Positions 2,560 to 26,245 of a stretch of DNA of 64,000 nucleotides are shown here, one piece after another; the stretch's first letter is position 1, and each line of letters starts with the position of its first letter. The notes beneath the pieces were generated by a model. The model made no database searches and was not told the origin of the DNA. It saw only the letters and a program-made list of their open reading frames with translations. Origin of the DNA: an uncultured virus (IMG/VR IMGVR_UViG_3300037295_000360) (lineage: Duplodnaviria; Heunggongvirae; Uroviricota; Caudoviricetes); IMG/VR virus record IMGVR_UViG_3300037295_000360, positions 62,001 through 126,000 of that record; one strand, given 5' to 3'. A program made the translations under genes and the position numbers.

Positions 2560-2591
2560 TCCGATGCCAGTCATTCTGATGGATATAATAT

Positions 2592-4906: not shown

Positions 4907-5761
4907 ATGCAAAATTTTTCAAAAGTATTTCAAAATATAATTTCAGATATTAAATTAGATGGAAAGGTCTCTACACCAAGAGACTTAGAGGTTGTAGAAC
5001 TAATGTATGGTGGATATAAAGTAAATCCAATTGAGCCAATTGCGAATTTCAATGACAGAGAATTTAACTTTAAATATTTTGCAGGAGAACTTGTATGGTA
5101 TTTAAACAAAGAAACTGATGTCAATTACATTAATCAATTTTCTGGATTCTGGAAAAACATAACAAATCCAGGAACAAACGAAATCAATTCAAATTACGGT
5201 TCTCTTTTATTTGGAGAACAATTACAATGGGTATTAAATACACTTAAATCCGATAAAAATTCAAGACAGGCAATTGCTTTCTTAAATCAACCTAAATATC
5301 AAGTAAAAGGTAATAAAGATTTTGTGTGCACAATGTATCTTAATTTTTCGATTAGAGATAACATGTTGGATATGAAAGTACAAATGAGATCTAATGATAT
5401 TTTTTATGGTCTTACATTTGATGCCCCTTTCTTTGCATTAGTACAACAACATGTTCATATGTGGCTTAAGTCAACATATCCTGAATTAGAATTAGGAATA
5501 TATCATCACTACTCCGATAATATTCATTTTTATCAAAGACATTATGAATTGGCTGAAAAAATAGTAATGGATCATCCGCATGTTAATCAATATAATATGA
5601 ATTTAATTACTCCTCTGTTTAATATTGAAAATGGTAATATAATAATAACTGATCATGGTATTAAAATGATAAATAACATAAATGAAGCGGTTAATAATAA
5701 CAAAGATAAACATGAATATTATAAAATATTATGTGAATATCTTAATATAAATAAAGTATGA
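4907..5761 (+). CDS. Thymidylate-synthase-fold pyrimidine (probably dCMP) hydroxymethylase/methylase, T4 gp42-like
   Basis: NSNYG, DKNSRQA, catalytic KDFVCT, MRSNDIFYGLTFD (Asp where canonical ThyA has Asn), HFYQRH. Confidence 0.75.
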   Translation: MQNFSKVFQNIISDIKLDGKVSTPRDLEVVELMYGGYKVNPIEPIANFNDREFNFKYFAGELVWYLNKETDVNYINQFSGFWKNITNPGTNEINSNYGSLLFGEQLQWVLNTLKSDKNSRQAIAFLNQPKYQVKGNKDFVCTMYLNFSIRDNMLDMKVQMRSNDIFYGLTFDAPFFALVQQHVHMWLKSTYPELELGIYHHYSDNIHFYQRHYELAEKIVMDHPHVNQYNMNLITPLFNIENGNIIITDHGIKMINNINEAVNNNKDKHEYYKILCEYLNINKV

Positions 5762-6054
5762 TAGATAGCATGTATAAAATTCCAAATTTTAGCATAGATA
5801 TAGATGACGTAATGCTAATAGCAGATACTTCAGAATTCCATGATAACATTATAGACTTTATTGAAAAAAATATAAGTGGAGAAATTAATGAAATTGTGTT
5901 ATGCCATTTTATTGCAAAGGATGGAACTGTAATGGTTGCAAAACTCCCAAGGAGTGCATATGCCCAGGCGGTTATAAGAAGTATTGATTTCTATGTGGAA
6001 GAAGAACAGTATGAAAAATGTAATAATGTAAAACAACTTTTAGAAAAATTATAA
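5758..6054 (+). CDS. Small protein with C-terminal UVR (UvrB/UvrC)-like motif
   Basis: IDFYVEEEQYEKCNNVKQLL; immediately upstream of clpP. Confidence 0.7.
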   Translation: MIDSMYKIPNFSIDIDDVMLIADTSEFHDNIIDFIEKNISGEINEIVLCHFIAKDGTVMVAKLPRSAYAQAVIRSIDFYVEEEQYEKCNNVKQLLEKL

Positions 6055-6726
6055 ATGAACTACGAAAAGGAATTTAACAAGTATGCGATGAGCGATCACA
6101 ATGTAAGCTCATCGACTATGGAATATTATAAGAAACAAATCCAAGGATCAATGACTCCATATATTTTAGAGGAGAGAGAATTGAGAGCGACACAGATGGA
6201 TATTTTTTCAAGACTTATGATGGACCGCGTTCTATGGGTTGCCGGAACTGTGAATGATAATATGTCAACAATAGTACAGGCGCAATTAATGTTTCTGGAT
6301 TCTGTCGATAAAAGAGATATAACAATGCATATTGATTCTGGAGGAGGTTCTGTAAAATCAGGTCTTTCTATGGTTGACGTAATGGAATATATCAACTCAG
6401 ATATAAAAACAGTTAACACAGGAATGGCAGCGTCGATGGGTTCTGTATTATTAGGAGCTGGAACTAAAGGTAAGAGAAGTTCTCTAAGACACTCTACCAC
6501 TATGTTACATCAATCTTCTGGAGGATTTAGTGGAAACATTCAAGACGCAGAAATTGATTGGGCTGAATGGAAAAAAGTTAACAAAGAATTATTTAATTTG
6601 TTAGGACAATATTGTGGTAAAAAACCAGAACAAGTAATGAATGATGCGACTCGGGATTTATGGTTAAACGCCGAAGAGGCATTAAAATATGGAATTATAG
6701 ATGAAATCATTACTGCCAAGAGATAA
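6055..6726 (+). CDS. clpP: ATP-dependent Clp protease proteolytic subunit
   Basis: DIFSRL, SGGGSV, AASMG (Ser), MLHQ (His), RDLWL (Asp); Bacteroidota-type N-terminus (EFNKYA...MTPYILEER). Confidence 0.97.
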   Translation: MNYEKEFNKYAMSDHNVSSSTMEYYKKQIQGSMTPYILEERELRATQMDIFSRLMMDRVLWVAGTVNDNMSTIVQAQLMFLDSVDKRDITMHIDSGGGSVKSGLSMVDVMEYINSDIKTVNTGMAASMGSVLLGAGTKGKRSSLRHSTTMLHQSSGGFSGNIQDAEIDWAEWKKVNKELFNLLGQYCGKKPEQVMNDATRDLWLNAEEALKYGIIDEIITAKR

Positions 6727-6727
6727 T

Positions 6728-6928
6728 ATGAGAGTACACTTTTACATAATACAAAGCGACATTTATGTCTTAAATAAATTATTGGAGAAGGAACGAATAG
6801 AGCCAGGAGGTGAACCTATTAAAATAGCTGCAAATTACTTCAAAGGATCATATATGGTAGACATATCACATGACGAATATGTTAGACTAAATGACAATGA
6901 ACTATTAATATCTTTACTTTCATTATGA
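6728..6928 (+). CDS. Hypothetical protein
   Basis: ORF; start moved to the ATG at 6728, just after the clpP stop. Confidence 0.6.
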   Translation: MRVHFYIIQSDIYVLNKLLEKERIEPGGEPIKIAANYFKGSYMVDISHDEYVRLNDNELLISLLSL

Positions 6929-7239
6929 CACAAAGAGAAAAACACAGAAATCTACTCGTTGAATTAAAAAACTATCAATTAATCGATCATAACGTAAAGT
7001 TTGAAGATGTTAGTGAAAATCCAATATGGTATATGGAATACACAACAACACCCGAAAAGCAAAACGTTTTTATTAATCATTGCGTTCTTCGAATGAAAGA
7101 TGTTCTTAAAATTTCTAAAGAAGAAGCTGAGATTGAGGCAAGTTGGTTTATATTACAATGTGGACTTCCTGTTGTAACTGGAGATAAAATGGATATCCAT
7201 AAAGGTAAAAACACAACAGAATCTAGAAGAATATTATAA
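6925..7239 (+). CDS. Hypothetical protein
   Basis: 104-aa ORF with ATGA overlap. Confidence 0.7.
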   Translation: MTQREKHRNLLVELKNYQLIDHNVKFEDVSENPIWYMEYTTTPEKQNVFINHCVLRMKDVLKISKEEAEIEASWFILQCGLPVVTGDKMDIHKGKNTTESRRIL

Positions 7240-7289
7240 TATAATAAGTTTTTGTTAAATATTAGCATGTCTATGGAGATACATAGTAT

Positions 7290-7988
7290 ATGAACATCTT
7301 TAATAAAAATTGGTTAACAGAAACTCCTTACGATTACGAATTAAAACAATATAGGCTATTATCTGGAATAAAGGAAATCAAATCCCTTATATTAGATAAT
7401 AGCCTTTATTCTGCGATGTCGACAGTTGAAACAGAATTAGAAATTCTTTATAATATAAAATACAACAGGGATATAATAGATAATAATTCTAGAAAGATCA
7501 TCGGAATCGACACTGACACATTATCTTTAAAATATAAATATGAGTCCGAAACTGAGCACGAAATCATTTATAAAGTATGTGATATGGCAATTGAGCTATT
7601 AGAAGATATGTATAGATTAGTTAGAGACAAATGGAGAAATCTAGAAAAAAATTGCATAATTACTGAAATACCAAACAAAAGAACATTAAATACAACAGGC
7701 TATATAATGTATATTGATGCTAAACTTGAAAATATTGAAGTATATTCTTATAAGGAACCTTTGAGTTTTAAAATAGATTGGATTAATTTTAAAGTAAATA
7801 AGCAATTCGTAATTAAAAATAACTTACAAAGTATTGCTCAATTTATTTCAGAGAAAGAATTAGAAAGTAATAAATTTAGATTTTTTAGATTTGACGTAAA
7901 AATCAAAGGTGAAATGCCTGCACATGATGAATGTATGATTCCACTTATGCAATATTGCATATTTAACAGAATCAAACATGGTATTTAA
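7290..7988 (+). CDS. Hypothetical protein
   Basis: 232-aa ORF in gene order; no motif confidently recognised. Confidence 0.75.
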   Translation: MNIFNKNWLTETPYDYELKQYRLLSGIKEIKSLILDNSLYSAMSTVETELEILYNIKYNRDIIDNNSRKIIGIDTDTLSLKYKYESETEHEIIYKVCDMAIELLEDMYRLVRDKWRNLEKNCIITEIPNKRTLNTTGYIMYIDAKLENIEVYSYKEPLSFKIDWINFKVNKQFVIKNNLQSIAQFISEKELESNKFRFFRFDVKIKGEMPAHDECMIPLMQYCIFNRIKHGI

Positions 7989-8030
7989 GATATATACACA
8001 ATCATATCTTATTAAAAATAAATTTTAAAA

Positions 8031-9254
8031 ATGGCTTACGTAATTCAAGAAGATATCCTGGCGAGCATCGAAGAAACATTAAATGTGGTTCAAGGAAATT
8101 CTCAAACATATAGCATACAATTAGATAGGGACTTTCTTGGAAATCCAGTGTCACTGCAATATGTAACATCAATTTCGGTGGAAATATTAAATGAAACGGG
8201 TGATTTACAGCTTGTATTTGGAAATCCGGTAATTCCTGGAGTTTCACAACAATTAAATGTCGGAAGCGTAAACACAAATAATGCAGGAAATATTTCGTTT
8301 GAAATAATAGATAACATTTCAAGATACTTAGATCCTGGTGATTTATTTGCAAGGATTAGAATAGTTTATAGTAATTATTTTCCATCAGCAAAGACTTACA
8401 CCATGCCATTATTTAAAATAGGGCGCATTATTGCTGGAGAATTAGTAGACGACCCTGATGTTATAATTCCTACACCTGTTCAGGTTATTTCTAGAAAACC
8501 ATTCGGGTCTTCCGAATACATGATACAGTACATAGATTCAGATATACCTTCTAGATATGGATATATGTCAGTTAATTCACAAGATCCTTCTGCAATAAGC
8601 ATAATGACATTTAGAAATTTAGATTTAAATTTAATTAGACCTGCGTCACTTGAAAATTTTGTTGTTAACCGAATGGGAGTTGATAATATTACCGGAATTA
8701 TTACATTATTCAGTATAGACAATCCATCATTTTATGCAATATATAAAATTTTAACATCTGAAAGAATTGATGTTATTCCTGGAAATGGTGTTGACGCTGA
8801 CAGTGATGGAATTCGTTTAAAGGTTGTTCTTGAAGATTTTTCAAGAGGACCAGGTGTTAATAAATCAATATGGCAAGTAGGTGATAATGTAGCATTCAGT
8901 ATAGATGCACATGGTATTACAGTTAAACCAGAAGGAGTATTAACATATACTGACAAGAACAAAAGAGTTGCGTTTGCGACTAATGGTGCAGGTTCTCCTA
9001 CAGGAATATACATTACATATTCTCCATACAAACAATCCTATGTTATGGTAGAAGTGAATGGTATTAGTGTTGATGTAGGCGATGGAGCTAAAAATAAGAC
9101 AGTTTACTTTTCAGGAAACAATGGTGAAACTTCAATGTTAATTGGAGAAATACGAAGAGAAGATCAATTAATATGGAATGGCAATATCGCAGGATTCGAA
9201 TTAGAAGTAGGTGATGAAATAAACTTAATATATGAGATAGACTATTTAGGATAA
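8031..9254 (+). CDS. Putative virion structural protein (beta-rich)
   Basis: C-terminal VEVNG...GFELEVGDEINLIY module resembles the C-terminus of the next gene; preceded by GATATATA. Confidence 0.55.
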   Translation: MAYVIQEDILASIEETLNVVQGNSQTYSIQLDRDFLGNPVSLQYVTSISVEILNETGDLQLVFGNPVIPGVSQQLNVGSVNTNNAGNISFEIIDNISRYLDPGDLFARIRIVYSNYFPSAKTYTMPLFKIGRIIAGELVDDPDVIIPTPVQVISRKPFGSSEYMIQYIDSDIPSRYGYMSVNSQDPSAISIMTFRNLDLNLIRPASLENFVVNRMGVDNITGIITLFSIDNPSFYAIYKILTSERIDVIPGNGVDADSDGIRLKVVLEDFSRGPGVNKSIWQVGDNVAFSIDAHGITVKPEGVLTYTDKNKRVAFATNGAGSPTGIYITYSPYKQSYVMVEVNGISVDVGDGAKNKTVYFSGNNGETSMLIGEIRREDQLIWNGNIAGFELEVGDEINLIYEIDYLG

Positions 9255-9323
9255 TACTACACATTTATTAAATATATATAATAATAAACACGAATAACGT
9301 GAATTAAAAATAAAAAGAAGAAA

Positions 9324-10460
9324 ATGGCACAAATTAGGTCTAAGCAAATTGCAGACTTTTTAGCAACGGTAAACTGGGCAACGGTAACCGAAAATAAAAT
9401 AGCAGGAGCCGTAGCTACTAAGGCGTATATCGACTCAGTTACGGGTCAAATTACTGGAAATATTAACGCATCCATAGATTCATTAGAAGTTGCGCTTTCT
9501 ACTGAAATAAACTCAACAAATTCCGATGTTACTCGAATTGATGGTTCTATTTCAGCCGAAATAACTAGAGCAACTTCAAGTGAGCTTTCTATAACTAATA
9601 GGTTAACTACGGAAATTAATAGAGCTACTTCGGTAGAATCTAATCTGTCAGCAAATATTAACACTGAAAAATCGAGAATTGATGCGATTTTGACAGCATC
9701 TGACGCCGATAAAGACTCTTTTGTTGAAATAGTTTCGTTAATTAACGCAGTAGATACGACAAATGATGGCGCACTAGCCGTAGTAGTTGGTAACTTAAAC
9801 GCTGAAATTGCAGCTACAAATTCAGATGTAACTTCAATAAATACTAGAGCAAATGCGCTCGCAGCGTCCTTAAGTTCCGAAATTGTATCTACTAATAATG
9901 ATGTAACTTCAATTGATACTAGGGCAACTGCACTTGCAGCGTCCTTAAGTTCAGAAATTGTATCTACTAATAATGATGTAACTTCAATCGATGCTAGAGC
10001 AACTGCTCTCGCAGCTGCCTTAAGTTCGGAAATAGTAGCTACCAATAGCGATGTAACTTCAATAAATACTAGAGCAACCTTATTAACATCAGCTTTAAGT
10101 TCTGAAATTTCATCTACCAATTCTGACTTTGTAAGAGTCGAGGCGGTTGTATCGGTACAGGACTCTATTGAAAAGGCAAGAGCTATCGCAGCCGAAACAT
10201 CAATAACCACGAAAGTAACTTCAATTGAAAGTGCTCTTATGCAGGACTTTGAAATGTTTGAAGAAACATTTACTGGAACGATATCTTTGACATATTCTCT
10301 TATAAATCCAGTACAGGACAATAACAAGTATTTGGCTCAAGCGTATGTGAATGGTATTAAAACGTCGATAGCCTCTGTGAGTGGAACCTCGGTTGTTATC
10401 GCAAATCCAGGATATGCAATAGACGCGAACGATGTTGTTGTGATTACTTATCAATTTTAA
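9324..10460 (+). CDS. Fibre-like coiled-coil virion protein
   Basis: ATKAYID fibre motif, DSFVEIV motif, 25-aa tandem repeats, C-terminal YVNG...DVVVITY module. Confidence 0.7.
   Translation: MAQIRSKQIADFLATVNWATVTENKIAGAVATKAYIDSVTGQITGNINASIDSLEVALSTEINSTNSDVTRIDGSISAEITRATSSELSITNRLTTEINRATSVESNLSANINTEKSRIDAILTASDADKDSFVEIVSLINAVDTTNDGALAVVVGNLNAEIAATNSDVTSINTRANALAASLSSEIVSTNNDVTSIDTRATALAASLSSEIVSTNNDVTSIDARATALAAALSSEIVATNSDVTSINTRATLLTSALSSEISSTNSDFVRVEAVVSVQDSIEKARAIAAETSITTKVTSIESALMQDFEMFEETFTGTISLTYSLINPVQDNNKYLAQAYVNGIKTSIASVSGTSVVIANPGYAIDANDVVVITYQF
9819..10118 (+). repeat. Four 75-bp coding tandem repeats
   Basis: N(S/N)DVTSI(N/D)(T/A)RA...LSSEI(V/S)(S/A)T units starting at 9819, 9894, 9969 and 10044. 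Confidence 0.9.
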
Positions 10461-10478
10461 TTTTCAGCAAATAGTATT

Positions 10479-10505
10479 AAAAGGACCTTTTTAGGTCCTT
10501 TTTTT
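10479..10505 (+). terminator. Intrinsic terminator
   Basis: AAAAGGACCT-TTTT-AGGTCCTTTTTTT. Confidence 0.85.
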
Positions 10506-10539
10506 ATGTAATATATACAGTATAAAAATTAATGCTTAT

Positions 10540-11742
10540 ATGAAAATAGGAATAACTATAGGACTTTCACAAGAAAACGAATCATTATGGATTAATGGGA
10601 TAAAACTCAATGCATTATATCTAGCGCACACCCTATTACAAATCAAAGGCAACGACGTTTGGATATTAGACACATCGAACATTGTACAGGATCTATCGAA
10701 GGTAACTTGGGATACTAACATATTTAAGACTTATAAATATAAGGACAAATGGAAAGAATTAGACTTATTGATAACACTTGGAACCTCATTACCTGAAATA
10801 TATACTGCAGCTCTTAGAAAAAATAATCCAAATGCAAGGGTCGTAAAGTACCAATGTGGTAACAATTATGTAATAGACATGGAAAGAGTTTTATTTGGAG
10901 AAAGTGATGCACCTGGATTACCCGCATGGGATAAAGGTCATGACGAAACATGGATAATTCCACAGCAAGAACTACATAATAAAGAATATTTTGAATTAAT
11001 ATATAGACATGAACCTGGAAAGGTTAAGGTAGTTCCATTTATATGGGACCCTATGTTTATTGAAAAAAACAAAAAAATACTACAGTCACTTGGTAAAAAA
11101 ATACCAGAATATCAACCTCGTCCTATTTCTGAAAAGAAAATATCAGTAATGGAACCAAATTTAAACGTAGTAAAATACGCGTTAATACCGATTATGATTG
11201 TTGAATCATTTTATAGAAAATTCGGAGAAGGTTCATTTAAACAACTGTTTGTCGGAAGTGGTAATAGATTACTAAAAAACAAGTACTTTATGGGAATGTT
11301 AAAATTAATGGATATAGTTAATGCAAAAAGTCCATTAATAAAGTTTATTCCAAGATATCCGGTAACTACATTTCTTGCGGAGGAAACAGATATAGTGCTA
11401 GCTCATCAGTGGGGAAATCCATTAAATTATTCATATTTAGACGCGCTCTATTTTAATTATCCAGTAGTGCACAATGCTGATTTTATTAAAGATGCTGGAT
11501 ATTATTACAAGGACTTTGAAATTTCAGGAGGAATGAAACAACTAGACATTGCTATAAATAAACATGATTCTCAAATTAAAGAATATAAAGAAAAAAGTGA
11601 TAAAGTTTTAAATAGATACATATCGACAAATCCCGAAATAATCAAAACATATGAAATGTTAATAAGAAATCTCTGGGAGCCAGATTTACACAAACACAAA
11701 AAGACATATAAGTATAATTGGAAAACTAACCTATATAAATAA
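10540..11742 (+). CDS. DUF2827-like putative glycosyltransferase
   Basis: MKIGIT...SLWINGIKLN, VMEPNLNVVK, HQWGNPLNYSYLDALYFNYPVVHN. Confidence 0.7.
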   Translation: MKIGITIGLSQENESLWINGIKLNALYLAHTLLQIKGNDVWILDTSNIVQDLSKVTWDTNIFKTYKYKDKWKELDLLITLGTSLPEIYTAALRKNNPNARVVKYQCGNNYVIDMERVLFGESDAPGLPAWDKGHDETWIIPQQELHNKEYFELIYRHEPGKVKVVPFIWDPMFIEKNKKILQSLGKKIPEYQPRPISEKKISVMEPNLNVVKYALIPIMIVESFYRKFGEGSFKQLFVGSGNRLLKNKYFMGMLKLMDIVNAKSPLIKFIPRYPVTTFLAEETDIVLAHQWGNPLNYSYLDALYFNYPVVHNADFIKDAGYYYKDFEISGGMKQLDIAINKHDSQIKEYKEKSDKVLNRYISTNPEIIKTYEMLIRNLWEPDLHKHKKTYKYNWKTNLYK

Positions 11743-11786
11743 AATATATAATACTACAATCATTATTAAAAAGTAAGTAAACACAT

Positions 11787-14360
11787 ATGCCTCCACTAAT
11801 TAAAATCAAACAAATAGATGGGCTAGAGGAAGCGTTATCTACTATTGGAAATCAAGGATACCAAGGAAATCAGGGTATTATAGGCGCTCAAGGGCTAGTT
11901 GGACCTCAAGGATTAATTGGAAATCAAGGATTACTAGGTTTTCAAGGATTTATTGGACAACAGGGATTAGTTGGACCTCAAGGATTAGTTGGACCTCAAG
12001 GATCAGTTGGACCTCAAGGATTACTAGGTTTTCAAGGATTTATTGGACAACAGGGATTAGTTGGACCTCAAGGATTAGTTGGAAATCAAGGATCAGTTGG
12101 ACCTCAAGGATTAATTGGGTTTCAAGGATTAGTTGGACAACAGGGATTAGTTGGGTTTCAAGGATTTATTGGAGATCAGGGATTAATTGGACCTCAAGGA
12201 TTAGTTGGACCTCAAGGTTTTAAAGGAGATCAGGGATTAATTGGTTTTCAAGGATTAGTTGGACAACAGGGATTAGTTGGGTTTCAAGGATTTATTGGAG
12301 ATCAGGGATTAATTGGACCTCAAGGATTAGTTGGACCTCAAGGATTAGTTGGACAACAGGGATTTATTGGTTTTCAAGGTGCAGTTGGACCACCAACTAC
12401 CACTGCAACTGACAGTAGTAAATTACCATTATCAGGTGGTACTTTATCGGGTACAATTAAACGAACATCTTCTATTACCGGATTTCTCGAAGGCTCATAT
12501 GATAATGTCGGCGCTAATGGCGGTCATACTAATCCAATTTATACTATAGGTAGTAACTACAATCCTGCACTAACATCACTTAGCGACATGTACGGTATAG
12601 GGTATACTATTGGAGGTGGAGCTGGCGTAAGTGCTCAAGGAGCAGGTAGTGGTTGGGGAATGTATGTTGCAGCAGGCGGTAATTCAAGAATATTTTTAAG
12701 TGCATCATCAGGAAACATAGGTATTGCAGGAACATATTATGGGTCTGGCGGCGGATTAACTGGGAATGCGGGTTCATTAAGTATTGGCGGTAATGCTGCA
12801 AGAGCTTCAAGAGCAAATGGTAATTTTTACATTGATGATAATTTTGGTGTTGGTGTTGTAGGTCTCTATAATGCATCAAGATACCAAGGTGTGTTTGCGA
12901 TGGGTGATGCTTATAAACCTTCTGCTGATGGTACAAGTTTAAACAACAGTTATGGTATTGTTTGGACACATACAGATGTAGGTGGTCAATCAAAAACAGG
13001 ATTAGGTCATCAAATGCTAATTACTGAAGCTGGTGTAACTCAAACTGCAATAGGTAATGGTATATGGACGAGAGCAACTGTAACGGCAGGAACAGGAACA
13101 AATGGTGGATTTGAAAATGGAACGTATAATAATGGACACAATAATATTTGGCGATTTGGTAATGCTAAAGAATATGGTATAGGTTATTACCAGGCGTGGT
13201 CAGGAAATGTTGGTAATGTAAATCAAGATGCAATAGGATTTCATTTTGGTAATAGAGAAACACCTAGTTTCTGGGTTAGCCACAATGGGGATACAAGAGC
13301 TCGGTCATTTTCAGGAACATCATTTAATGGTTCTTTGAATGGTAATGCATCATACGCTACTGCTTTCCAGAGAAAATCTTTTACTGATGCAAACGCAGAA
13401 TTTAGTGCAACAGAAGCTGGCACTAAGAGATACTCAGGTGATAATCCGAATATTTCTAATGGTCCTGGTGGAACATGGTGGAACTATGAAACTCTTCGTC
13501 ACTCTGACGGAGGTAATTTATGGGGAACTCAAATAGCATGGGGATGGGAAGATAATGCTAATAAATTAGCAGTAAGGTGTGTGTCAGGCGGTACTTTCGG
13601 AGGATGGGCTTATTATCTTAATAGTTCAAACGTAGCAAGTTATGCATTGCCTATTGGTGGAGGAACTTTAACAGGTGCATTAACAGCACCTACGTTTAAT
13701 GGAGCATTGAATGGTAATGCAAATACTGCTAATAATATATCAGGAAACACCTTTATATTAGGAGGAGGTAGTGTTACTAATTCAGCTGCAATAGGCATGT
13801 ATTTGAATAATAATAATGATACAAATTACTGGATAGGAAAGTCTGCAGGTGCCTGGACACAACCTTTAGATGTTTCATTTTATACAGGAGTTAGATATAG
13901 CGCGTATCAAGGATATGGAGGACATGTTTTCTATACCGGAGGGTATAGGAACGTAGAAGCCTTCTCAGTAGGTAATGGAGATAACAATACACGAGTTAAT
14001 TACAATTTACTTGTTACTGGCTCAATTACAGCAAGTGGTGATATTACTGCATTTTCGGATATTAGAGTTAAAGAAAACATTAAAGTAATTCCAGATGCAA
14101 TTGAAAAGATTAAAGCGCTCCGGGGTGTTACATTTACAAGAAATGACAAAGATGATAAAATATCTCGATCATCTGGTGTTATTGCCCAGGAAGTTTTAAA
14201 GGTAATGCCAGAATTAGTTAAAGCAGACGTAACTGGAATGTACTCGGTTGCATATGGTAACATGGCGGGTCTTTTCATTGAAGCTATAAAGGAACAACAA
14301 TCACAAATAGATGAATTAAAGGAACTTGTAAGACTTCTTTTAAAAAATAAAGATAAATAA
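11787..14360 (+). CDS. Collagen-shaft tail fibre with C-terminal intramolecular chaperone (peptidase S74)
   Basis: 61 Gly-X-Y triplets, LPLSGGTLSG/LPIGGGTLTG fibre motifs, FSDIRVKENI...LRGVTF...GVIAQE autocleavage domain and terminal coiled coil. Confidence 0.9.
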   Translation: MPPLIKIKQIDGLEEALSTIGNQGYQGNQGIIGAQGLVGPQGLIGNQGLLGFQGFIGQQGLVGPQGLVGPQGSVGPQGLLGFQGFIGQQGLVGPQGLVGNQGSVGPQGLIGFQGLVGQQGLVGFQGFIGDQGLIGPQGLVGPQGFKGDQGLIGFQGLVGQQGLVGFQGFIGDQGLIGPQGLVGPQGLVGQQGFIGFQGAVGPPTTTATDSSKLPLSGGTLSGTIKRTSSITGFLEGSYDNVGANGGHTNPIYTIGSNYNPALTSLSDMYGIGYTIGGGAGVSAQGAGSGWGMYVAAGGNSRIFLSASSGNIGIAGTYYGSGGGLTGNAGSLSIGGNAARASRANGNFYIDDNFGVGVVGLYNASRYQGVFAMGDAYKPSADGTSLNNSYGIVWTHTDVGGQSKTGLGHQMLITEAGVTQTAIGNGIWTRATVTAGTGTNGGFENGTYNNGHNNIWRFGNAKEYGIGYYQAWSGNVGNVNQDAIGFHFGNRETPSFWVSHNGDTRARSFSGTSFNGSLNGNASYATAFQRKSFTDANAEFSATEAGTKRYSGDNPNISNGPGGTWWNYETLRHSDGGNLWGTQIAWGWEDNANKLAVRCVSGGTFGGWAYYLNSSNVASYALPIGGGTLTGALTAPTFNGALNGNANTANNISGNTFILGGGSVTNSAAIGMYLNNNNDTNYWIGKSAGAWTQPLDVSFYTGVRYSAYQGYGGHVFYTGGYRNVEAFSVGNGDNNTRVNYNLLVTGSITASGDITAFSDIRVKENIKVIPDAIEKIKALRGVTFTRNDKDDKISRSSGVIAQEVLKVMPELVKADVTGMYSVAYGNMAGLFIEAIKEQQSQIDELKELVRLLLKNKDK
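11847..12395 (+). repeat. Collagen-like 18-bp coding repeat (G-x-Q-G-hydrophobic-hydrophobic)
   Basis: 61 uninterrupted triplets from GNQ to GPP; DNA unit like GGACCTCAAGGATTAGTT. Confidence 0.95.
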
Positions 14361-14383
14361 TAAAAAATATAAAACAATAGAGT

Positions 14384-14860: not shown

Positions 14861-14899
14861 ACAAGTCTACCATTGTTTATATAATAATAACAGCTATTT

Positions 14900-14924
14900 A
14901 AAGATCCTTTATCGGATCTTTTTT
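14900..14924 (+). terminator. Intrinsic terminator
   Basis: AAAGATCC-TTTATC-GGATCTTTTTT. Confidence 0.75.
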
Positions 14925-14973
14925 AGCGATATATAATAATATAATATAATAATAACTTTAACTAATAATTAGT

Positions 14974-15906
14974 ATGGCAAACATAATTAAACATGAGACT
15001 AATATGCCAGAAGTATACATGTATATTGACAGCATATCAGACCATTCCGACACGCTCCATGATATCCACGGATGGATCTGTTCAACTAAATACAATATTG
15101 AAGATATTTTAATAGATAAAAAATCTGTTTCACCTATATTTACTCCAAGGCAAGATGTGACGCTATATTACAATCCAACTGATTTAAATCCTGGTATTAA
15201 TTTTTATCTAAAAAAATCAAATGCATTTGATTCTATTCAATTAAAGGTAAAGGGGAAAAAGGAACTATTAGATATTGGCTCTATGGCAAAGTGGATCGCA
15301 TACCATTCTGGATTTAAATCTGAAGAAAAGGGATTAATTGTAGTAGATGATTTTTATTCAGACCCTGATTTTATACGTGAATGGGCAATCAAAGAAATAT
15401 ATTTTTCACCATCAAGTTATCATAAAGGAGAGAGGGCAACTGAAAGGTTTTCTATTATTGGTATGAAAGAAAAACTTGAAAAAATAATAGGTAAACCTAT
15501 TTATAATTGGAATGATGATAGTTACGCAAACGGAATATTTCAATTCTGCACAGCAGATCAGCCTATCGTTTATCATGTTGACAATCAAAATTATGCAGGT
15601 ATGGTATTTTTATCACCAGACGCTCCGGCTAATTCCGGAACTACATTTTATCGAAGTAAAGTAACTGGCGATTATTCCTTTGATAATGAAAAAAGAATGA
15701 CTGAAAGTTATGTAAATGCATTTAAGGGAAGTAATGCTGAAATGAATTTCTATGATGGAAGTCACTTTGAAAAAATTGATGAAATAGGAAACAAATATAA
15801 TCGATTAGTCCTGTTTGACGCTAAAAACATTCACGCTGCCACGCAATATTTTGGAGATAAAAAGGAAAACGCAAGACTATTTCACATGTTCTTTTTTGAC
15901 ATTTAA
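14974..15906 (+). CDS. 2OG-Fe(II) dioxygenase-like protein (DUF6445-like) with extra N-terminal domain
   Basis: IVVDDFYSDPD, HxD (YHVD), SGTTFY, NRLVLFD, distal His (NIHAA), 2OG-binding Arg (ARL). Confidence 0.75.
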   Translation: MANIIKHETNMPEVYMYIDSISDHSDTLHDIHGWICSTKYNIEDILIDKKSVSPIFTPRQDVTLYYNPTDLNPGINFYLKKSNAFDSIQLKVKGKKELLDIGSMAKWIAYHSGFKSEEKGLIVVDDFYSDPDFIREWAIKEIYFSPSSYHKGERATERFSIIGMKEKLEKIIGKPIYNWNDDSYANGIFQFCTADQPIVYHVDNQNYAGMVFLSPDAPANSGTTFYRSKVTGDYSFDNEKRMTESYVNAFKGSNAEMNFYDGSHFEKIDEIGNKYNRLVLFDAKNIHAATQYFGDKKENARLFHMFFFDI

Positions 15907-15922
15907 TTTAATAAAAAATACA

Positions 15923-17770
15923 ATGAATATTAGTATAATAACGAGATGTACACGGTTACATAATTTAAAAGAAGTTAAAAAATCAATATTTAATAATATA
16001 CCCGAAGATATTAACATTAAATGGCATGTCATGTTTGATGTAACATCACTTAAAGATATTGATGCTGAATTGCTATTTGACATCAAGGATAAAAATACAA
16101 TATATCATTTTGAAAGAGGAGATTCAGTGGGTATGTTATTTCCACAGTGTAGTAAATTAATAAAATCATTCACTGATACGTGGGTATATTTTATAGATGA
16201 CGATAACATATTACATCCTCAATTCTATAAAAATATATTTGAAATAAATCAACATCACCCATATCACAGTGTTTATGTATTTTCACAAAAGGTAGATAAA
16301 AGAGATCATAGCGGACTTACAAGTAGGATTGCTATTCCATCTGCTATGAAAGTTGGCTTAGTCGATTTAGCACAATATATTATACATTCAAATGTATATA
16401 ATAACAATGTGGAATACTCATTCGAACCTGATTATTGTGCAGATGGAATACTAATCGAAAAGTTATATAATGAAAAACCAGATATCTTCTTTTTTGTAAA
16501 AAAAGAATTGTGTTATTATAATGCTTTATCATTAAAACCATTGGCAAATGTTCCGAAGATAATATATATTGGAAAGGATATGCCAGTGCTCCGGTCTATT
16601 CAATATGTAAATTATGAGGCAGACAATTTAAATGTATTATATCTAAAAAATGACGACGATATTATATCTCAAATTGCTTCATTTAAACCAGATAGTATTG
16701 TAACTCGAGGAAATAGTTGGAAAGATTTCGAAAATCTATCTCAACTACCTTTACAATTTAGAAGAAAGTGGATTAATATGACGCATGAAAAAACAAACCA
16801 AGAAGTAGGAGAAGCTGCATACCAATGTGCCATGTTGTCAATGTTAGACATCAATGGATTAGAAGATGCGGATATGATATCTTATTTTACACCGATCTAT
16901 AATATTGGAAACAAATTATATAATACATATCAATCATTATTGAATCAGACATATTCTAATTGGGAATGGGTAATTGTCAATGATTCAACTGATGGGGGTA
17001 GGTCACTGAAAGTAGCTGAAAAGATCGCAAGTAAAGATCCTAGAGTTAAGGTATATGACTTTAGAGAAAAAAGCGGAGGGAATATTGGAGACGTTAAATG
17101 GAAATGTTGTACATTGGCAAAGGGATATCTTCTTGCAGAATTAGATCATGACGATTTATTGGTTCCATCATGTACTATGGATTTATTTAAGGCGTCGAAG
17201 AAACATCCCGAGGCCGGCTTCTTTTTTAATGATACCCTCGAGGTCAATGAACAATGGGAATCCCAAACGTATCCTGAAGGATTTGCACTTGGATATGGTA
17301 AATATAGATCTGAGGAATATAATGGAAATATTATGTCTATCGCAACTCAACATAATATTAATCCAAAAACAATTAGACATATAGTAGGGGTTCCAAATCA
17401 CGTAAGAGCATGGAGAAGATCGACATATTTTGAAATAGGAGGACATAACCGAAACTTAGCTATTGCCGATGATTATGAATTAGTAGTTAGAACCTTCTTG
17501 AAAACAATTACATGTAAGATACCTAAATTAGGATATATTCAATTTTTATATAGTAATTCAAATGGACAAAATACACATGATTTAGCGAGAGCAGATATTC
17601 AACGTAGAGTAGGAACCATATCATCATACTATAATGAACAAATTAATGATAGGTTTACTCATTTAGGGTTAAACGATTGGGCATATTCTGAAAATCCAAA
17701 CTCACCATTAAATACAGAATCTCGCTATGGAGCTGAAGAAATGGCTGCAAACATAATATATCAAGAATAG
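15923..17770 (+). CDS. Two-domain GT-A (family 2-like) glycosyltransferase
   Basis: First domain SIITRC...YFIDDDNILHP; second domain YFTPIYN...WEWVIVNDSTD...ELDHDDLL...ADDYEL. Start moved to ATG 15923. Confidence 0.88.
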   Translation: MNISIITRCTRLHNLKEVKKSIFNNIPEDINIKWHVMFDVTSLKDIDAELLFDIKDKNTIYHFERGDSVGMLFPQCSKLIKSFTDTWVYFIDDDNILHPQFYKNIFEINQHHPYHSVYVFSQKVDKRDHSGLTSRIAIPSAMKVGLVDLAQYIIHSNVYNNNVEYSFEPDYCADGILIEKLYNEKPDIFFFVKKELCYYNALSLKPLANVPKIIYIGKDMPVLRSIQYVNYEADNLNVLYLKNDDDIISQIASFKPDSIVTRGNSWKDFENLSQLPLQFRRKWINMTHEKTNQEVGEAAYQCAMLSMLDINGLEDADMISYFTPIYNIGNKLYNTYQSLLNQTYSNWEWVIVNDSTDGGRSLKVAEKIASKDPRVKVYDFREKSGGNIGDVKWKCCTLAKGYLLAELDHDDLLVPSCTMDLFKASKKHPEAGFFFNDTLEVNEQWESQTYPEGFALGYGKYRSEEYNGNIMSIATQHNINPKTIRHIVGVPNHVRAWRRSTYFEIGGHNRNLAIADDYELVVRTFLKTITCKIPKLGYIQFLYSNSNGQNTHDLARADIQRRVGTISSYYNEQINDRFTHLGLNDWAYSENPNSPLNTESRYGAEEMAANIIYQE

Positions 17771-17780
17771 TAATACTTAA

Positions 17781-17842
17781 TTTAACAAAACTTTAACACT
17801 CCATATTTTTTAATATGGAGTTTTTTGATTATATTTACATAT
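17781..17842 (+). promoter_or_regulatory. Promoter cassette, copy 1
   Basis: TTAACA at 17782 and 17793; TATATTTACATAT at 17830. Confidence 0.75.
17798..17826 (+). terminator. Intrinsic terminator inside the promoter spacer
   Basis: ACTCCATATT-TTTT-AATATGGAGT followed by a T run. Confidence 0.7.
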
Positions 17843-17871
17843 ACAAATTAAAACAACTAAACATATACAAT

Positions 17872-18120
17872 ATGGCAAAGAATTTAAAAGTACAGACTAT
17901 CAGCGTTCCAAACCCAAAAATAGGTGAAAAATATTATTTTAAATTTGCAGGAAGTCAATTCAATGGTCCTATTATTGAATTGGATGAACCATTAACGAAA
18001 ATATACGGTCATGCATGGTATTTGATGAGTGATGACAGTGAAAAACTAAATAAGCACGGCAAAAAAACAACATATCCAATATCAATTTATAACATTTTTA
18101 AAATCGATCAAAATGTATAA
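17872..18120 (+). CDS. Hypothetical protein
   Basis: Start moved to ATG 17872, because the track start (17815) lies within the terminator/promoter. Confidence 0.65.
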   Translation: MAKNLKVQTISVPNPKIGEKYYFKFAGSQFNGPIIELDEPLTKIYGHAWYLMSDDSEKLNKHGKKTTYPISIYNIFKIDQNV

Positions 18121-18838
18121 CATTCAAGAACTAAAGGCAATGATGTTTATTGATATTGAAACGGTATCAGAATATCATACATACAGAGAATTTATAGAAA
18201 AAAGACCCGGAGCAACTAAAATGTGGGAAAAAAAGGCAAATTTCTATAGAGACACTGAAAAATCATGTATTGATTTAAGGGATGATCAGATATACATTGA
18301 CAAGGCTGCTCTCAGCCCTGAATTTGCTAAAATTGTAACTATATCAATTGGTCATATTCAATTTGATGAAAACGAAATGCCAAACATGACAAGGATTAAA
18401 ACATTCAGCGGACATGATGAATCGATATTATTAACTGAATTCATGGGTACTGCTCAATCTATATTTAATAAAATTCCTAATGTAAAATTTGCAGGTCATA
18501 ATATAAAAAACTTTGACTTTCCTTTTTTACTTAAAAGAGCTATTATCAACAATGTGTTAACTCCATCTCAATTTCACCTACAAAAAAAGAAGCCATGGGA
18601 AAACTGTCTAGTAGATAGTTATGAGATTTGGAAATTTGCAGGTTGGAATAGTGCTTCACTTGATTTAATATGTGAGTGTCTTCAAATTCCTTCACCTAAA
18701 TCGGAAATGAGAGGAGATGAAACTACATTTGAATATTGGAATGGAAGCCTAGAAAAAATAGCAACATATTGCGAGTCTGACGTTAAATCGACTATAAATG
18801 TTTTTTTAAAAATGTCATACTTACCTATAATTGCATAA
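18113..18838 (+). CDS. PolB-like 3'-5' exonuclease (DEDDy)
   Basis: ExoI FIDIET, ExoII GHNIKNFDFPFL, ExoIII YCESDV. Confidence 0.9.
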   Translation: MYNIQELKAMMFIDIETVSEYHTYREFIEKRPGATKMWEKKANFYRDTEKSCIDLRDDQIYIDKAALSPEFAKIVTISIGHIQFDENEMPNMTRIKTFSGHDESILLTEFMGTAQSIFNKIPNVKFAGHNIKNFDFPFLLKRAIINNVLTPSQFHLQKKKPWENCLVDSYEIWKFAGWNSASLDLICECLQIPSPKSEMRGDETTFEYWNGSLEKIATYCESDVKSTINVFLKMSYLPIIA

Positions 18839-18840
18839 CT

Positions 18841-19692
18841 ATGAAAATATGGGCATACGTTACCGTATGGAATGAGCAAGAAATGATTTCATATTATCTA
18901 AGGCATTATTCACAGTTTTGTGAAAAGATTATTGTCTTGGATAATGAATCAACAGATGACACATGTATGATTGCTAGCACATATCCAATGGTTGAGATTA
19001 GAAAGTTCAGCACATCTGAGACGTTTAATGACTATGTACATTTAGAATTAAAACATAAATGTATTGAAGAATCAAAGGGCCTTGCTGATTATATTATAGT
19101 TAGTGACTGTGACGAATTTATAGTACATCCTAATATTAAAGAATTTTTAATTAATAATTCCCAATATTCTATATTTTATCCTGCAGGATTTCAAATGGTA
19201 TCTTCTTACTTTCCGACAAGCGATAAACAAATATATGATGAAGTACCCTATGGAGTTCCTGACCCATGGTACTCGAAACCAATTTTAATTAATCCAAATA
19301 AGGTAAACAATTTTATTTGGATTGATGGTTGTCATGAAACAACATTAGACACTGATTATATTGGAGAAATAATGCATCCTGTTCCTGTTGAAATAAGACC
19401 AGATGGGGAGTGGAATGGTCACCCATGGGGTAGATGGAGAATGCAATACAATGTATTAGAGGGGTTTAACTCATTTCCAATTAAATTACTACACTTTAAA
19501 TTTATGAGTGCAGACTACGTCACTGCTAGGTATCAATTATATTCACAAAGAAATAGTAAACAGAATAAAGAAAACGGATTAGCAACCCATTATGAGGATT
19601 CTATCGCAAATAACACTATTCAAAATCAGATAAATAAACTAATAGAGGATTCAATTACTGTAAATATTAATAATTTTGATTATACCAAATAA
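18841..19692 (+). CDS. Family 2-like glycosyltransferase
   Basis: WNEQEMI..YLRHY, LDNESTD, DxD motif VSDCDEF, LLHFK. Confidence 0.85.
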   Translation: MKIWAYVTVWNEQEMISYYLRHYSQFCEKIIVLDNESTDDTCMIASTYPMVEIRKFSTSETFNDYVHLELKHKCIEESKGLADYIIVSDCDEFIVHPNIKEFLINNSQYSIFYPAGFQMVSSYFPTSDKQIYDEVPYGVPDPWYSKPILINPNKVNNFIWIDGCHETTLDTDYIGEIMHPVPVEIRPDGEWNGHPWGRWRMQYNVLEGFNSFPIKLLHFKFMSADYVTARYQLYSQRNSKQNKENGLATHYEDSIANNTIQNQINKLIEDSITVNINNFDYTK

Positions 19693-19693
19693 T

Positions 19694-19755
19694 TTTAACA
19701 AAAAGTTAACATTTATATTTTTTTATTTTCATTTAAAATGATTATATTTACATAT
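19694..19755 (+). promoter_or_regulatory. Promoter cassette, copy 2
   Basis: TTAACA at 19695 and 19706; TATATTTACATAT at 19743. Confidence 0.75.
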
Positions 19756-19772
19756 AGTAAAACAAACAATAT

Positions 19773-20027
19773 ATGGAAAATTTTGATGCATTTGACCCGC
19801 CAATGGCAGAGTTAATTAACAACTTAAAGTTTAAGTTATGTAATGATAATTACGATGTGTTAATTTCAAAGGGAATCGACCTTGATGAAATGAAAGAAAG
19901 AGGGATGGATATCGTACCTGTTATAAATACATTACGTGAAATGATTTTATTATTTCTAGAAGTTGAAGAGTATAAAAAATGTCAAAATATTAAACAAATC
20001 ATAGATGAATATGAATATCATCTATAA
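19773..20027 (+). CDS. Small protein with C-terminal UVR-like motif
   Basis: ILLFLEVEEYKKCQNIKQII. Confidence 0.7.
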   Translation: MENFDAFDPPMAELINNLKFKLCNDNYDVLISKGIDLDEMKERGMDIVPVINTLREMILLFLEVEEYKKCQNIKQIIDEYEYHL

Positions 20028-20044
20028 TAAATAAACACACTAAT

Positions 20045-20230
20045 ATGAAAACAGAAGCAGAGAGTCTAGAAAAAATTGCAGATGCTTTATTGATAATTGC
20101 AACATGTATGCTAAATGCCCAATCAAGGGAAATAGCATTAAATTCTAAAAAAATAAAAGAATCTAGAGAATTATCTAGGGAATCTTTAAAATCATTAAAA
20201 TCAAAAACCACGTTAAATACACAAGTTTAA
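20045..20230 (+). CDS. Hypothetical protein
   Basis: 61-aa ORF in gene order. Confidence 0.55.
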   Translation: MKTEAESLEKIADALLIIATCMLNAQSREIALNSKKIKESRELSRESLKSLKSKTTLNTQV

Positions 20231-20240
20231 TTGATATGAT

Positions 20241-21044
20241 ATGATAGATCACTACAAAGTATTAGGCATATCCCATGAAGCCACACCTGAGGATATTAAA
20301 AGGGCCTACCGCAAGCTTGTAAAATTACATCACCCTGATGTTAATAATGGCAATGATACTGAGTTTAAAAAAATTGCACAGGCATATGATGCAATAACAT
20401 GTGGTGAAGGCAAAACAAAAGGATATACTAAAACCGAGTATAAGTCAACATCGGATAAACAATATAATTGGACTGACTTTTTTTCTAATGATGATTTTTC
20501 ACAAATGTTTAATAATGCATATGGAGGTGGCGTAACAAAAGGTACAGACATTAAGGTTTCAATATCGATCTCACTGGAAGAATGTTATTATGGAGCGCTA
20601 AGACACATTGACGTAGGCACTGGTGGATTTAATATTAATATACCTAAAGGAATTCCCAATGGCACAAAACTTAAAGTAAGTGGAAAAGGTGCCCTCCCTA
20701 CTAATGGTATTAGCTCAACGCCAGGTGACATTATTTTAACAGTAAATGTTATTCATGATTTAGATATTATAGTAAACGGCAATGATATACACATAGACCT
20801 CCAACTGGATTGGATTGATTTAATATTAGGAGGTGACTTTGAAATTAAAAATAAACTACAAAATGTAATTATTAAGGTTCCTCGAGGATCTTATGATTCT
20901 AAGCTTCTTAGGATAGTTGGTAAGGGAATGCCAATATATAATAATGAAGGATTTGGAAACTTATTTGTCAAATTAAGAACACGTAATATCATCTTAAACG
21001 ATAGACAAATAGAGCTATTAAATAAGATAAAATACGATATATAA
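20241..21044 (+). CDS. DnaJ/CbpA-type J-domain chaperone (no Zn finger)
   Basis: DHYKVLG...AYRKL...HHPD; C-terminal IPKG...GKG...PGD and LRIVGKGMP...GNLFV. Confidence 0.92.
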   Translation: MIDHYKVLGISHEATPEDIKRAYRKLVKLHHPDVNNGNDTEFKKIAQAYDAITCGEGKTKGYTKTEYKSTSDKQYNWTDFFSNDDFSQMFNNAYGGGVTKGTDIKVSISISLEECYYGALRHIDVGTGGFNINIPKGIPNGTKLKVSGKGALPTNGISSTPGDIILTVNVIHDLDIIVNGNDIHIDLQLDWIDLILGGDFEIKNKLQNVIIKVPRGSYDSKLLRIVGKGMPIYNNEGFGNLFVKLRTRNIILNDRQIELLNKIKYDI

Positions 21045-21097
21045 TTTATAATGATTTTAAAGCCTAAATTATATTATTAAAAAAATTTAAACCAGAG

Positions 21098-21364
21098 ATG
21101 GATGAATTAGAGGAATACAACAGCACGAATAGCAATCAATTTTTAAAAAAACTACAAAATTCTTCAAAGGAAGATATGATGGAGCTAATATACAATTCAA
21201 TAGTAGAAAGTAAAATGGGTGCGTTAAAGCATAACGGAACTATTAACGATAAAATAGAAGGGGTGCAAAGTGTATTAAATTTCTTTTTAGAAAGAGAGGC
21301 ATATGAAAAATGTTTAGAACTTAAAAAAATAATAATTAAACTAAAAACACCTTCTATAATATAA
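21098..21364 (+). CDS. Small protein with C-terminal UVR-like motif
   Basis: VLNFFLEREAYEKCLELKKII. Confidence 0.7.
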   Translation: MDELEEYNSTNSNQFLKKLQNSSKEDMMELIYNSIVESKMGALKHNGTINDKIEGVQSVLNFFLEREAYEKCLELKKIIIKLKTPSII

Positions 21365-21456
21365 TAACCTTTTAGGCTCCTGGATATTTAACATATTACC
21401 ATACAAATATATAATGTAAGTGGATTTATTTCCACTATTAAAAACAATATTCAATA

Positions 21457-21714
21457 ATGGAAAATGTAAGTGGAGAAGAAAGAGACTCTCTGATGAGATC
21501 CAGCTACAATATAATTACTAAAAGCTTTACAAAAACAGTTAACAGATTCATAGTATATCAAGATGGTAAAAACACAATAGACATTCCGCATGGAAAGGGA
21601 CAAAGAAGCATGTTCATAGATGTTCTGCTTGCTTATTTTATAGAAATCGAAGAATATGAAAAATGTGATATCTTAAAAAAACTAAAAGACCTGGTAATAA
21701 TGACAGGCGATTAA
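21457..21714 (+). CDS. Small protein with C-terminal UVR-like motif
   Basis: LLAYFIEIEEYEKCDILKKL. Confidence 0.7.
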   Translation: MENVSGEERDSLMRSSYNIITKSFTKTVNRFIVYQDGKNTIDIPHGKGQRSMFIDVLLAYFIEIEEYEKCDILKKLKDLVIMTGD

Positions 21715-26228: not shown

Positions 26229-26245
26229 AATAAAATAAAATAATT

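Follow-up and report, generated by a model that had tools for sequence, protein, structure and literature searches.

Four EEYEKC-motif paralogues beside the ClpC-ClpP and dnaJ genes of an uncultured phage, and the likeness of their C-terminal hairpin to the UVR domain

The DNA analysed here, hereinafter the window, is a stretch of 64,000 nucleotides spanning positions 62001–126000 of a 170,013-bp contig (GC 30.7%), the uncultured caudovirus record IMGVR_UViG_3300037295_000360 of IMG/VR. Since CheckV puts the completeness of this record at 61%, the full genome is probably that of a jumbo phage. The window encodes a block comprising a ClpC-type ATPase, a thymidylate-synthase-like protein and ClpP and, further downstream, DnaJ and PhoH; interspersed with these are four small ORFs, P1–P4 (Table 1), which an earlier note on this DNA had picked out as candidate adaptors of the phage ClpC. 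Its description of the locus was accurate: the four ORFs, of 84–98 aa, lie on the plus strand at the starts it gave and share a C-terminal motif, with one gene abutting clpP and three placed around dnaJ. The thymidylate-synthase-like gene and P1 overlap at the stop of the former, and clpP begins at the base after the P1 stop codon, leaving no gap; P2 precedes dnaJ, and P3 and P4 follow it. Translated in all six frames, the 170,013-bp record contains four instances of a strict form of the motif ([FYLIVMW]xExEx[YFW][EKQDR][KR]Cxx[LIVM][KR]), one at the C-terminal end of each of P1–P4 and none elsewhere, with a count of 0 in each of 500 residue shuffles of the 212 plus-strand ORFs and an analytic expectation of 6e-5. 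A 145-codon frame at 26234–26671 of the window carries a looser version of the motif (ETEAYEACLNRM, near 26561); the family profile matches P1–P4 alone in the record.

By sequence, P1–P4 are diverged paralogues of one large unannotated family. A profile of the four recovered 139 proteins at E≤0.01 among 240 candidates. Sorting into subtypes by regular expression, which covers the 120 matches listed of these 139, assigned 85 to the P4 type, 29 to the P3 type, two to the P1 type and one to the P2 type (a cluster with one motif residue unlike that of the window's P2); the three 'other' matches, among them the window's own P4 cluster, also read as P4-type. The motif Cys is present in 120/120 of the listed matches, in 118 by regular expression and in P0035 and P0036 by reading of the sequence. 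An unseeded search of 1.84 billion representative proteins with a 39-sequence profile retrieved 986 clusters at E≤1e-3 and 108 at E≤1e-10, giving a family size of at least 986 clusters at 50% identity. The best 150 of these 986 clusters are 61–216 aa long; the Cys column is at least 90% conserved in the 150 sequences, and a Cys can be read in at least 145 of 149 representatives. A scan of IMG/VR yielded 198 relatives, with 78 loci kept; it was seeded with the peptide EEYEKCxxL, and the constancy of the motif among these 78 loci is partly built in.

The earlier note had taken the N-termini of the four proteins to be dissimilar and had pictured a modular design, with a constant end for docking and a variable end for substrate selection. 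Neither view survived alignment of the wider family: a conserved first helix with the consensus AMxNxYxxxTxxxT emerges family-wide, this helix and the C-terminal hairpin both align across subfamilies in multi-subfamily alignments, and P1–P4 are seen to be full-length paralogues with homologous N-terminal parts. Fusions to longer proteins were absent among 8,000 scored candidates of 213–2000 aa, which is weak evidence that the domain stands alone. The family is acidic, with a median pI of 4.41 and a median net charge of -11, and 84% of its members have a pI<5, as against 25% of the ORFs of the record; P1 and P2 are strongly acidic like the family, and P3 and P4 are milder (pI 5.4). AT-hook-like C-terminal tails, considered as a hint of DNA binding, were rejected, being found in just 2 of 269 fetched family proteins.

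Pfam and PHROGs assign no family to P1–P4, and PHROGs returned three scattered single matches and no family name for the 150 representatives. Neither library assigned P1–P4 or the 150 representatives to the known Clp adaptor families (ClpS, MecA, McsA/McsB type). In tblastn searches of 50,697 deposited phage records with three members, P1 had one chance match at E 10, and P4 and a distant member had none; the string EEYEKC had no occurrence in the literature searched. Across these sources, we met no description of the family.

Table 1. Coordinates of P1–P4 and neighbouring features in the window
Feature	Positions	Strand	Description
P1	5758-6054	+	98 aa, pI 4.46; between thymidylate-synthase-like gene and clpP; C-terminal motif FYVEEEQYEKCNNVK
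P2	19773-20027	+	84 aa, pI 4.39; upstream of dnaJ; motif LFLEVEEYKKCQNIK
P3	21098-21364	+	88 aa, pI 5.41; between dnaJ and P4; motif FFLEREAYEKCLELK
P4	21457-21714	+	85 aa, pI 5.36; best-conserved of the family, immediately 5' of phoH; motif YFIEIEEYEKCDILK
ClpC N-terminal extein, 399 aa	1264-2460	+	NBD1 and M-domain, ends at NBD2 Walker A GPTGVGK; Pfam
Canonical UVR motif of ClpC M-domain	2074-2151	+	residues 271-296, ...QDYEKASKLRD...; PF02151
Intein-type insertion in clpC	2461-4105	+	Intein_splicing match in C-piece; orthologues uninterrupted
ClpC C-terminal extein	4106-4879	+	NBD2, GGGIGF loop, D2-small; AAA_2 195 bits, ClpB_D2-small 85 bits
Thymidylate-synthase-like gene	4907-5761	+	PF00303 65.8 bits; between clpC and P1
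clpP	6055-6726	+	PF00574 189 bits
dnaJ	20241-21044	+	J domain and DnaJ_C (Pfam); P2 on one side, P3/P4 on the other
phoH	21728-22441	+	PF02562 213.8 bits; immediately 3' of P4

Predicted fold and likeness to the UVR domain

The AlphaFold2 model of P4, computed from a 68-sequence alignment with a predicted local distance difference test score (pLDDT) of 81.7, contains helices at residues 6-23, 49-63 and 67-82 and strands at 31-36 and 39-43. It forms a compact three-helix bundle in which the last two helices make up a hairpin (pLDDT about 90) packed on the first helix. The signature EEYEKC (P4 residues 65-70) covers the turn of this hairpin and the start of its last helix. Y67, C70, L73, L76 and L79/V80 follow one another at intervals of three to four residues, and because this spacing suggests a hydrophobic stripe, we infer that the Cys is packed between helices, at their interface. 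The feature that typifies the UVR domain, namely two antiparallel helices joined by a short turn, is present in the predicted model of P4 and in the lower-confidence model of P3.

The likeness to the UVR domain, as seen in UvrB, UvrC and the M-domain of ClpC, extends to detail: in both, some 35 residues form a helix-turn-helix hairpin whose second helix opens with aromatic-E-x-small-x-x-hydrophobic, and some family members read EEYEKCAKLRD or EEYERCSKIRD. There are also differences, in that the family has a near-invariant Cys in place of Ala and usually K-K or K-L in place of the R-D of UVR; moreover, its hairpin is predicted to pack on an N-terminal helix within a stand-alone domain of 85 aa, whereas UVR is appended to an enzyme. 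Against the gathering cut-off of 21.5 bits for Pfam UVR (PF02151), the P1 orthologue in a related record (G013) scored 17.0 bits and P2 orthologues scored 19.8, 16.0, 17.5 and 13.1 bits, all below cut-off, with UVR being the best or second-best Pfam match for two of the latter (17.5 and 13.1 bits). In 49 related records, all five sub-threshold matches to PF02151 (13.2–19.8 bits) are members of the family, comprising two P2 orthologues, one P1 orthologue and two distant members; the matches above cut-off are ClpC M-domains and one 273-aa protein. This last protein, from a related jumbo phage (L085, G006:C1:31691-31768), has a canonical C-terminal UVR motif (28.1 bits, ...ENFERAAELRD...) and is unrelated to ClpC. 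UVR was also the commonest Pfam family among the 150 representatives (8/150 at E≤10, best E 4.7e-4), and two neighbour clusters in the ESM Atlas have UVR in 17% and 13% of their members.

An independent UVR model, built from 29 UVR domains of eight Bacteroidota genomes, reached at least 10 bits in 14 of 153 family proteins versus one of 4,569 background ORFs, that one being ClpC. In profile-profile comparison by hhalign, the family hairpin aligned with the 29 host UVR domains over 31 columns in register (probability 20.8%, P 0.0011), with the family Tyr opposite the aromatic residue of UVR and the Cys opposite its conserved Ala; the reversed alignment gave 0.7% and the best of 30 column shuffles 3.0%. 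Profile searches against PDB sequences retrieved no UVR protein. Taken together, the C-terminal hairpin bears a weak yet consistent likeness to UVR and is probably a divergent form of it, with Cys for the conserved Ala, that fails formal membership in the Pfam family.

ClpC, gene neighborhoods and distribution

The phage ClpC, claimed earlier to lack the N-terminal domain and to keep the M-domain and GIGF loop, bears out this description. Its Pfam matches are AAA, AAA_lid_9, UVR (residues 271-296, 25.2 bits), AAA_2 and ClpB_D2-small; Clp_N had no Pfam match in it, and the stop-to-stop frame of clpC opens just 4 codons before the ATG. A PF02151 search of the whole record found the M-domain of ClpC as its sole match (27.3 bits). 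The sequence GGGIGF is present in the C-terminal part; loops of this IGF type contact ClpP. The protein thus combines the features of a class I Clp ATPase: two AAA+ modules, an M-domain with a UVR motif and an IGF-type loop. Its gene is split at the Walker A motif of the second nucleotide-binding domain (NBD2), with the junctions reading GVGK-C and SHN-T. The N-piece of the insertion codes for 32 aa and then a stop (2461-2559), and the C-piece (3767-4105) for 113 aa with its own ATG and an Intein_splicing match, ending in SHN before the extein Thr; the roughly 1.2 kb between the two, where Pfam matches nothing, contains a 96-aa ORF and a frame of ~330 codons that two stops interrupt. In 12 orthologues of this clpC (658–695 codons) the reading frame is continuous, with GVGKTETVKAL across the insertion site. 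The insertion looks like a fractured or split intein. The closest phage relatives of the phage ClpP are megaphage ClpPs, with up to 63% identity. A complex prediction pairing ClpC residues 1-399 (12-row alignment) with P1 (13-row alignment) gave scores of 0.30 and 0.29 against a mark of 0.32, which count neither way on binding.

Among the 49 related records, a Clp ATPase is encoded in 14, ClpP in 15 and DnaJ in 32. The P1-type gene lies inside the ClpC-ClpP block in 14/14 jumbo-clade ClpP-positive related records, as in the record of the window; in three near-identical records a glycosyltransferase-like ORF stands between the P1-type gene and clpP. Related records with this block have four paralogues each. 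For comparison, the 170-kb record G010 (70% complete) has dnaJ, phoH and three paralogues, with ClpC, ClpP and a P1-type gene absent; most other ClpCP-negative records are fragments too short upstream to judge. The other three genes have a neighborhood of their own: at 42/78 related loci dnaJ precedes the P4-type gene by no more than 3 kb, and at 46/78 phoH follows that gene directly. In all 42 dnaJ-bearing loci the P4-type gene flanks dnaJ, a motif-bearing ORF occupies the P3 position in 39 of them, and, of 38 loci that could be evaluated at the P2 position, 36 have one there.

Other proteostasis genes recur near members of the family. GroES lies 0.3–2.5 kb from a member in 8 records, and 0.3–5 kb away in several lineages. 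In one contig (L071), a ClpS-like gene (10337-10624, 26.7 bits) is situated ~200 bp downstream of a member; another protein of the same contig has a type IX secretion sorting domain, and the ClpP match of this record contains one in-frame TAA. In smaller phages the member is often just upstream of the large terminase: in L050 and L060 it overlaps a large-terminase gene confirmed by PHROGs, and in L058, L062, L064 and L070 a ~655-codon ORF overlaps the member in the same layout, with layout being the sole ground for the comparison. Two of the five megaphages with both ClpP and a Clp ATPase have a member, in both cases far from these genes, and three have none.

In bacterial assemblies, 15 of 18 loci with a member carry names that we take to belong to the phylum Bacteroidota. 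One bacterial locus, in a Flavobacteriaceae metagenome-assembled genome (MAG), encodes a protein with 57% identity to P4, a clue to the group of the hosts; the family appears to be linked mostly to phages and mobile elements of Bacteroidota. Contigs as long as 338 kb from Flavobacteriales and Crocinitomicaceae MAGs (L112, L116, L121, L122 and L124; match ~5900-6200) share a conserved 69-aa protein ending in the EEYEKC hairpin. The flanks scanned (L112, L122, L124) contain NADAR-domain genes in L122 and L124, PcfJ-like genes in L112 and L124 and an AAA ATPase in L112, a setting that looks like an integrated mobile element or mobile-element cargo. Separately, Bacteroidales MAGs encode a 152-aa protein with two EYEKC copies (L118, 5665-6123; similar ORFs in L119, L120 and L125), which is apparently chromosomal and lies beside hydrogenase-maturation genes.

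Possible partners of the family and competing explanations

The explanation that we put forward, plausible though still tentative, is that P1–P4 belong to one family of stand-alone, compact helical proteins with a divergent UVR-type hairpin, acting as small docking or decoy regulators near proteostasis machines. Each would be a single compact helical domain in which the first helix is conserved, the middle varies (forming a beta hairpin in P4) and the C-terminal end is a helix-turn-helix whose second helix opens with the near-invariant (E/D)EYEKC. The conserved acidic Tyr/Cys surface of the hairpin would bind the partner, and the diverged remainder of the protein might set which partner each paralogue recognizes. 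Because the paralogue genes sit beside proteostasis machines in this phage, these are the likeliest partners: from gene position, P1 may engage the N-domain-less ClpC/ClpP cassette and P2–P4 the phage DnaJ together with the host Hsp70 system. ClpC M-domains contact each other head-to-head in the resting state and ClpB M-domains bind DnaK, and either machine is therefore a plausible target. That proteostasis genes turn up near the family again and again is suggestive, albeit a pattern spotted post hoc in related records that are not independent of one another.

Several results weigh against this explanation, some on the side of the fold and of UVR, others on that of the gene neighborhoods. The fold models cover P4 and P3 of the four proteins, and that of P3, for which an alignment of 29 close relatives is available, is all-helical (helices 49-65 and 69-83) and of low confidence (pLDDT 60.3). 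With the P4 model as query, Foldseek found nothing in the PDB at E≤0.001 (best match PipX, E 0.78), a wide VIA-align search found only generic helical bundles (Z≤8.4, with BAG domains at Z about 6, in the noise range of the tool), and a BFVD search found only uncharacterised phage proteins (best E 8e-3). When scored with Pfam UVR, as the earlier note had proposed, P1–P4 had no match at E≤10, nor did PF02151 match any of 68 P4-type and 29 P3-type relatives; the 29-domain UVR model likewise gave P1–P4 just -0.7, 0.6, 5.4 and 0.7 bits. The hhalign probability of just 21% is also compatible with convergence of a short acidic helical hairpin. The parallel that had been drawn with UVR and the ClpC M-domain holds in part: a weak in-register likeness to UVR emerges from hhalign and the sub-threshold Pfam matches, but an hhalign comparison of the family with the alignment of the phage ClpC misses the M-domain, its best match lying in NBD1 with a probability of ≤0.2%. 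As for gene neighborhoods, gene order in related phages is largely inherited, and conserved adjacency is weak evidence of function; the thymidylate-synthase-like gene, too, shares the block with P1 and ClpC-ClpP. GroES lies within 5 kb of a member in 11 of the 13 records having it (25 searched), a count made after seeing the data and in which the 11 records amount to three of five GroES-bearing lineages by informal grouping. Finally, a Clp ATPase, ClpP and DnaJ are absent in 6/6 records that are at least 98% complete and have a member (59–119 kb, 1–2 members each). Since ClpC, ClpP and DnaJ are missing from such complete phages, a family-wide partner must be a host protein or something else.

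These last phages also bear on the original proposal, by which all four proteins are adaptors or regulators of phage or host ClpC, with the UVR hairpin docking tip-to-tip on the M-domain and the variable part selecting substrates; as an account of all four we consider it unlikely. The UVR-like character of the hairpin speaks for it, as does a phage ClpC that has a canonical UVR motif and no N-domain; in each of the eight Bacteroidota genomes with a family homologue, a frame of 842–874 codons bears UVR and is ClpC-like by length and motif alone. The constant place of the P1-type gene in the ClpC-ClpP block, together with the retention of just the three dnaJ-linked paralogues in G010, which is devoid of ClpCP, fits the proposal too. 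Precedent comes from chloroplasts, where UVR-domain proteins are enriched among CLPC1-trap interactors (PMC8889267); CLPF and the other CLPC1-trapped UVR proteins represent accessory UVR-motif proteins associated with a ClpC-type unfoldase itself bearing a UVR motif. As described there, the chloroplast proteins are larger and multi-domain (DUF151, YccV-like, EXECUTER), and we claim no homology with them beyond the hairpin. A phage precedent for binding ClpC and modulating ClpCP is the adaptor-like Gp53 of SPO1, compared here by description only; it differs in being a 25-kDa protein that acts on host ClpC (PMC6873191). The expected co-occurrence with ClpC holds for the P1 subtype (14/14) and fails for the family, which is present without ClpC or ClpP in the six near-complete phages and absent from three of the five ClpCP megaphages, with the other two having it in non-adjacent positions. 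Moreover, P2–P4 travel with dnaJ and phoH rather than clpCP, the P4 model is a closed three-helix domain with no free coiled coil, the N-terminal parts are homologous rather than modular, and profile similarity to the phage M-domain is lacking. The notion that the family as a whole consists of dedicated ClpC adaptors is thus weakened and not supported, since the family is common in phages without ClpC, a circumstance that the earlier note had itself named as counting against the idea; as a hypothesis, it can be maintained for P1 alone.

Three other explanations dispense with ClpC. Doubtful, to our mind, is that the proteins are acidic decoys or anti-defence factors, acting as DNA mimics or inhibitors of host nucleic-acid enzymes, with the chaperone linkage being incidental: such a role would suit small, stand-alone and strongly acidic proteins with multiple paralogues and the placement of the 69-aa chromosomal homologue beside NADAR and PcfJ-like genes, typical mobile-element cargo, but P3 and P4 are only mildly acidic, the best-conserved feature is the Tyr/Lys/Cys hairpin rather than an acidic array, and no defence or anti-defence family was matched, with the PADLOC library outside the search. 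T7 Ocr (gene 0.3) is similarly small, helical and very acidic, and its C-terminal EEVEEYE recalls the EEYE of the family; however, it is devoid of the Cys-bearing hairpin signature, and homology to it was rejected (hmmsearch E 4.8; hhalign probability 3.3% over 15 columns). We regard as quite improbable that the proteins help in virion assembly: a member directly 5' of, and overlapping, the large terminase in L050 and L060, the like layout in four further loci and the eight records with a nearby GroES would agree with such a function, yet the jumbo-clade genes lie among replication and auxiliary genes rather than structural ones, and no similarity to known scaffolding proteins or assembly chaperones was seen. 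Very improbable is a decoy function against host nucleotide excision repair, in which the hairpin would compete for the UVR-UVR contact of UvrB and UvrC. These two domains do interact (PMC8889267), UVR domains that frame length alone marks as UvrB-like and UvrC-like are present in the host-type genomes, and the thymidylate-synthase-like gene beside P1 could hint at modified DNA; nevertheless, the UVR-like hairpin is no more specifically similar to the UvrB/UvrC subtype than to the ClpC subtype, the family genes show no linkage to genes of repair, and a single target needs no four paralogues.

Returning to docking on proteostasis machines, a more far-reaching version of it, rather unlikely as it stands, would make the family a class of phage and mobile-element decoys whose UVR-type hairpins act on UVR/M-domain hubs (the ClpC M-domain, Hsp70-linked disaggregase control, UvrB-UvrC). 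The Cys could then provide thiol-dependent (redox, metal or covalent) control, the window's phage would possess four partner-specific regulators, and P1 might switch the N-domain-less ClpCP on or off as a form of adaptor-gated proteolysis. Jumbo phages have already been described as encoding ClpP, ClpS, ClpA/ClpX, DnaJ and Hsp10, with the DnaJ predicted to recruit host Hsp70 (PMC7824862), and the window's phage has the same kind of sporadic proteostasis genes; the passages of that survey on Clp, UVR, DnaJ and chaperones are without small UVR-like partners. The present family is large (at least 986 clusters), is sharply defined by its near-invariant EEYEKC, recurs beside phage chaperone and protease genes and carries Cys where canonical UVR has Ala. 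If docking on proteostasis machines is true, it would reveal marine and gut Bacteroidota phages retuning host protein quality control and would offer a small, easily handled probe of UVR/M-domain regulation; if the proteins are instead generic acidic decoys, a named family is still added to the unannotated majority of phage genes.

Other features of the window

Besides the ClpC-type ATPase, the thymidylate-synthase-like gene, clpP, dnaJ and phoH, Pfam matches in the region identify structural and glycosyltransferase genes, an exonuclease and RNase HII. An alternative genetic code or stop-codon recoding was ruled out, as the standard code gives dense coding on the plus strand. At 65.8 bits over 266 positions, the match of the thymidylate-synthase-like gene is weaker than a true ThyA should give, and the gene may code for another pyrimidine-modifying enzyme, which would suggest modified DNA. 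A 5'-open frame at 1-1152 resembles serine hydroxymethyltransferase (glyA), as judged by eye. An 857-aa protein encoded at 11787-14360 combines ~200 residues of collagen-like G-x-x repeats with a C-terminal Peptidase_S74 intramolecular chaperone domain and is probably a tail fibre.

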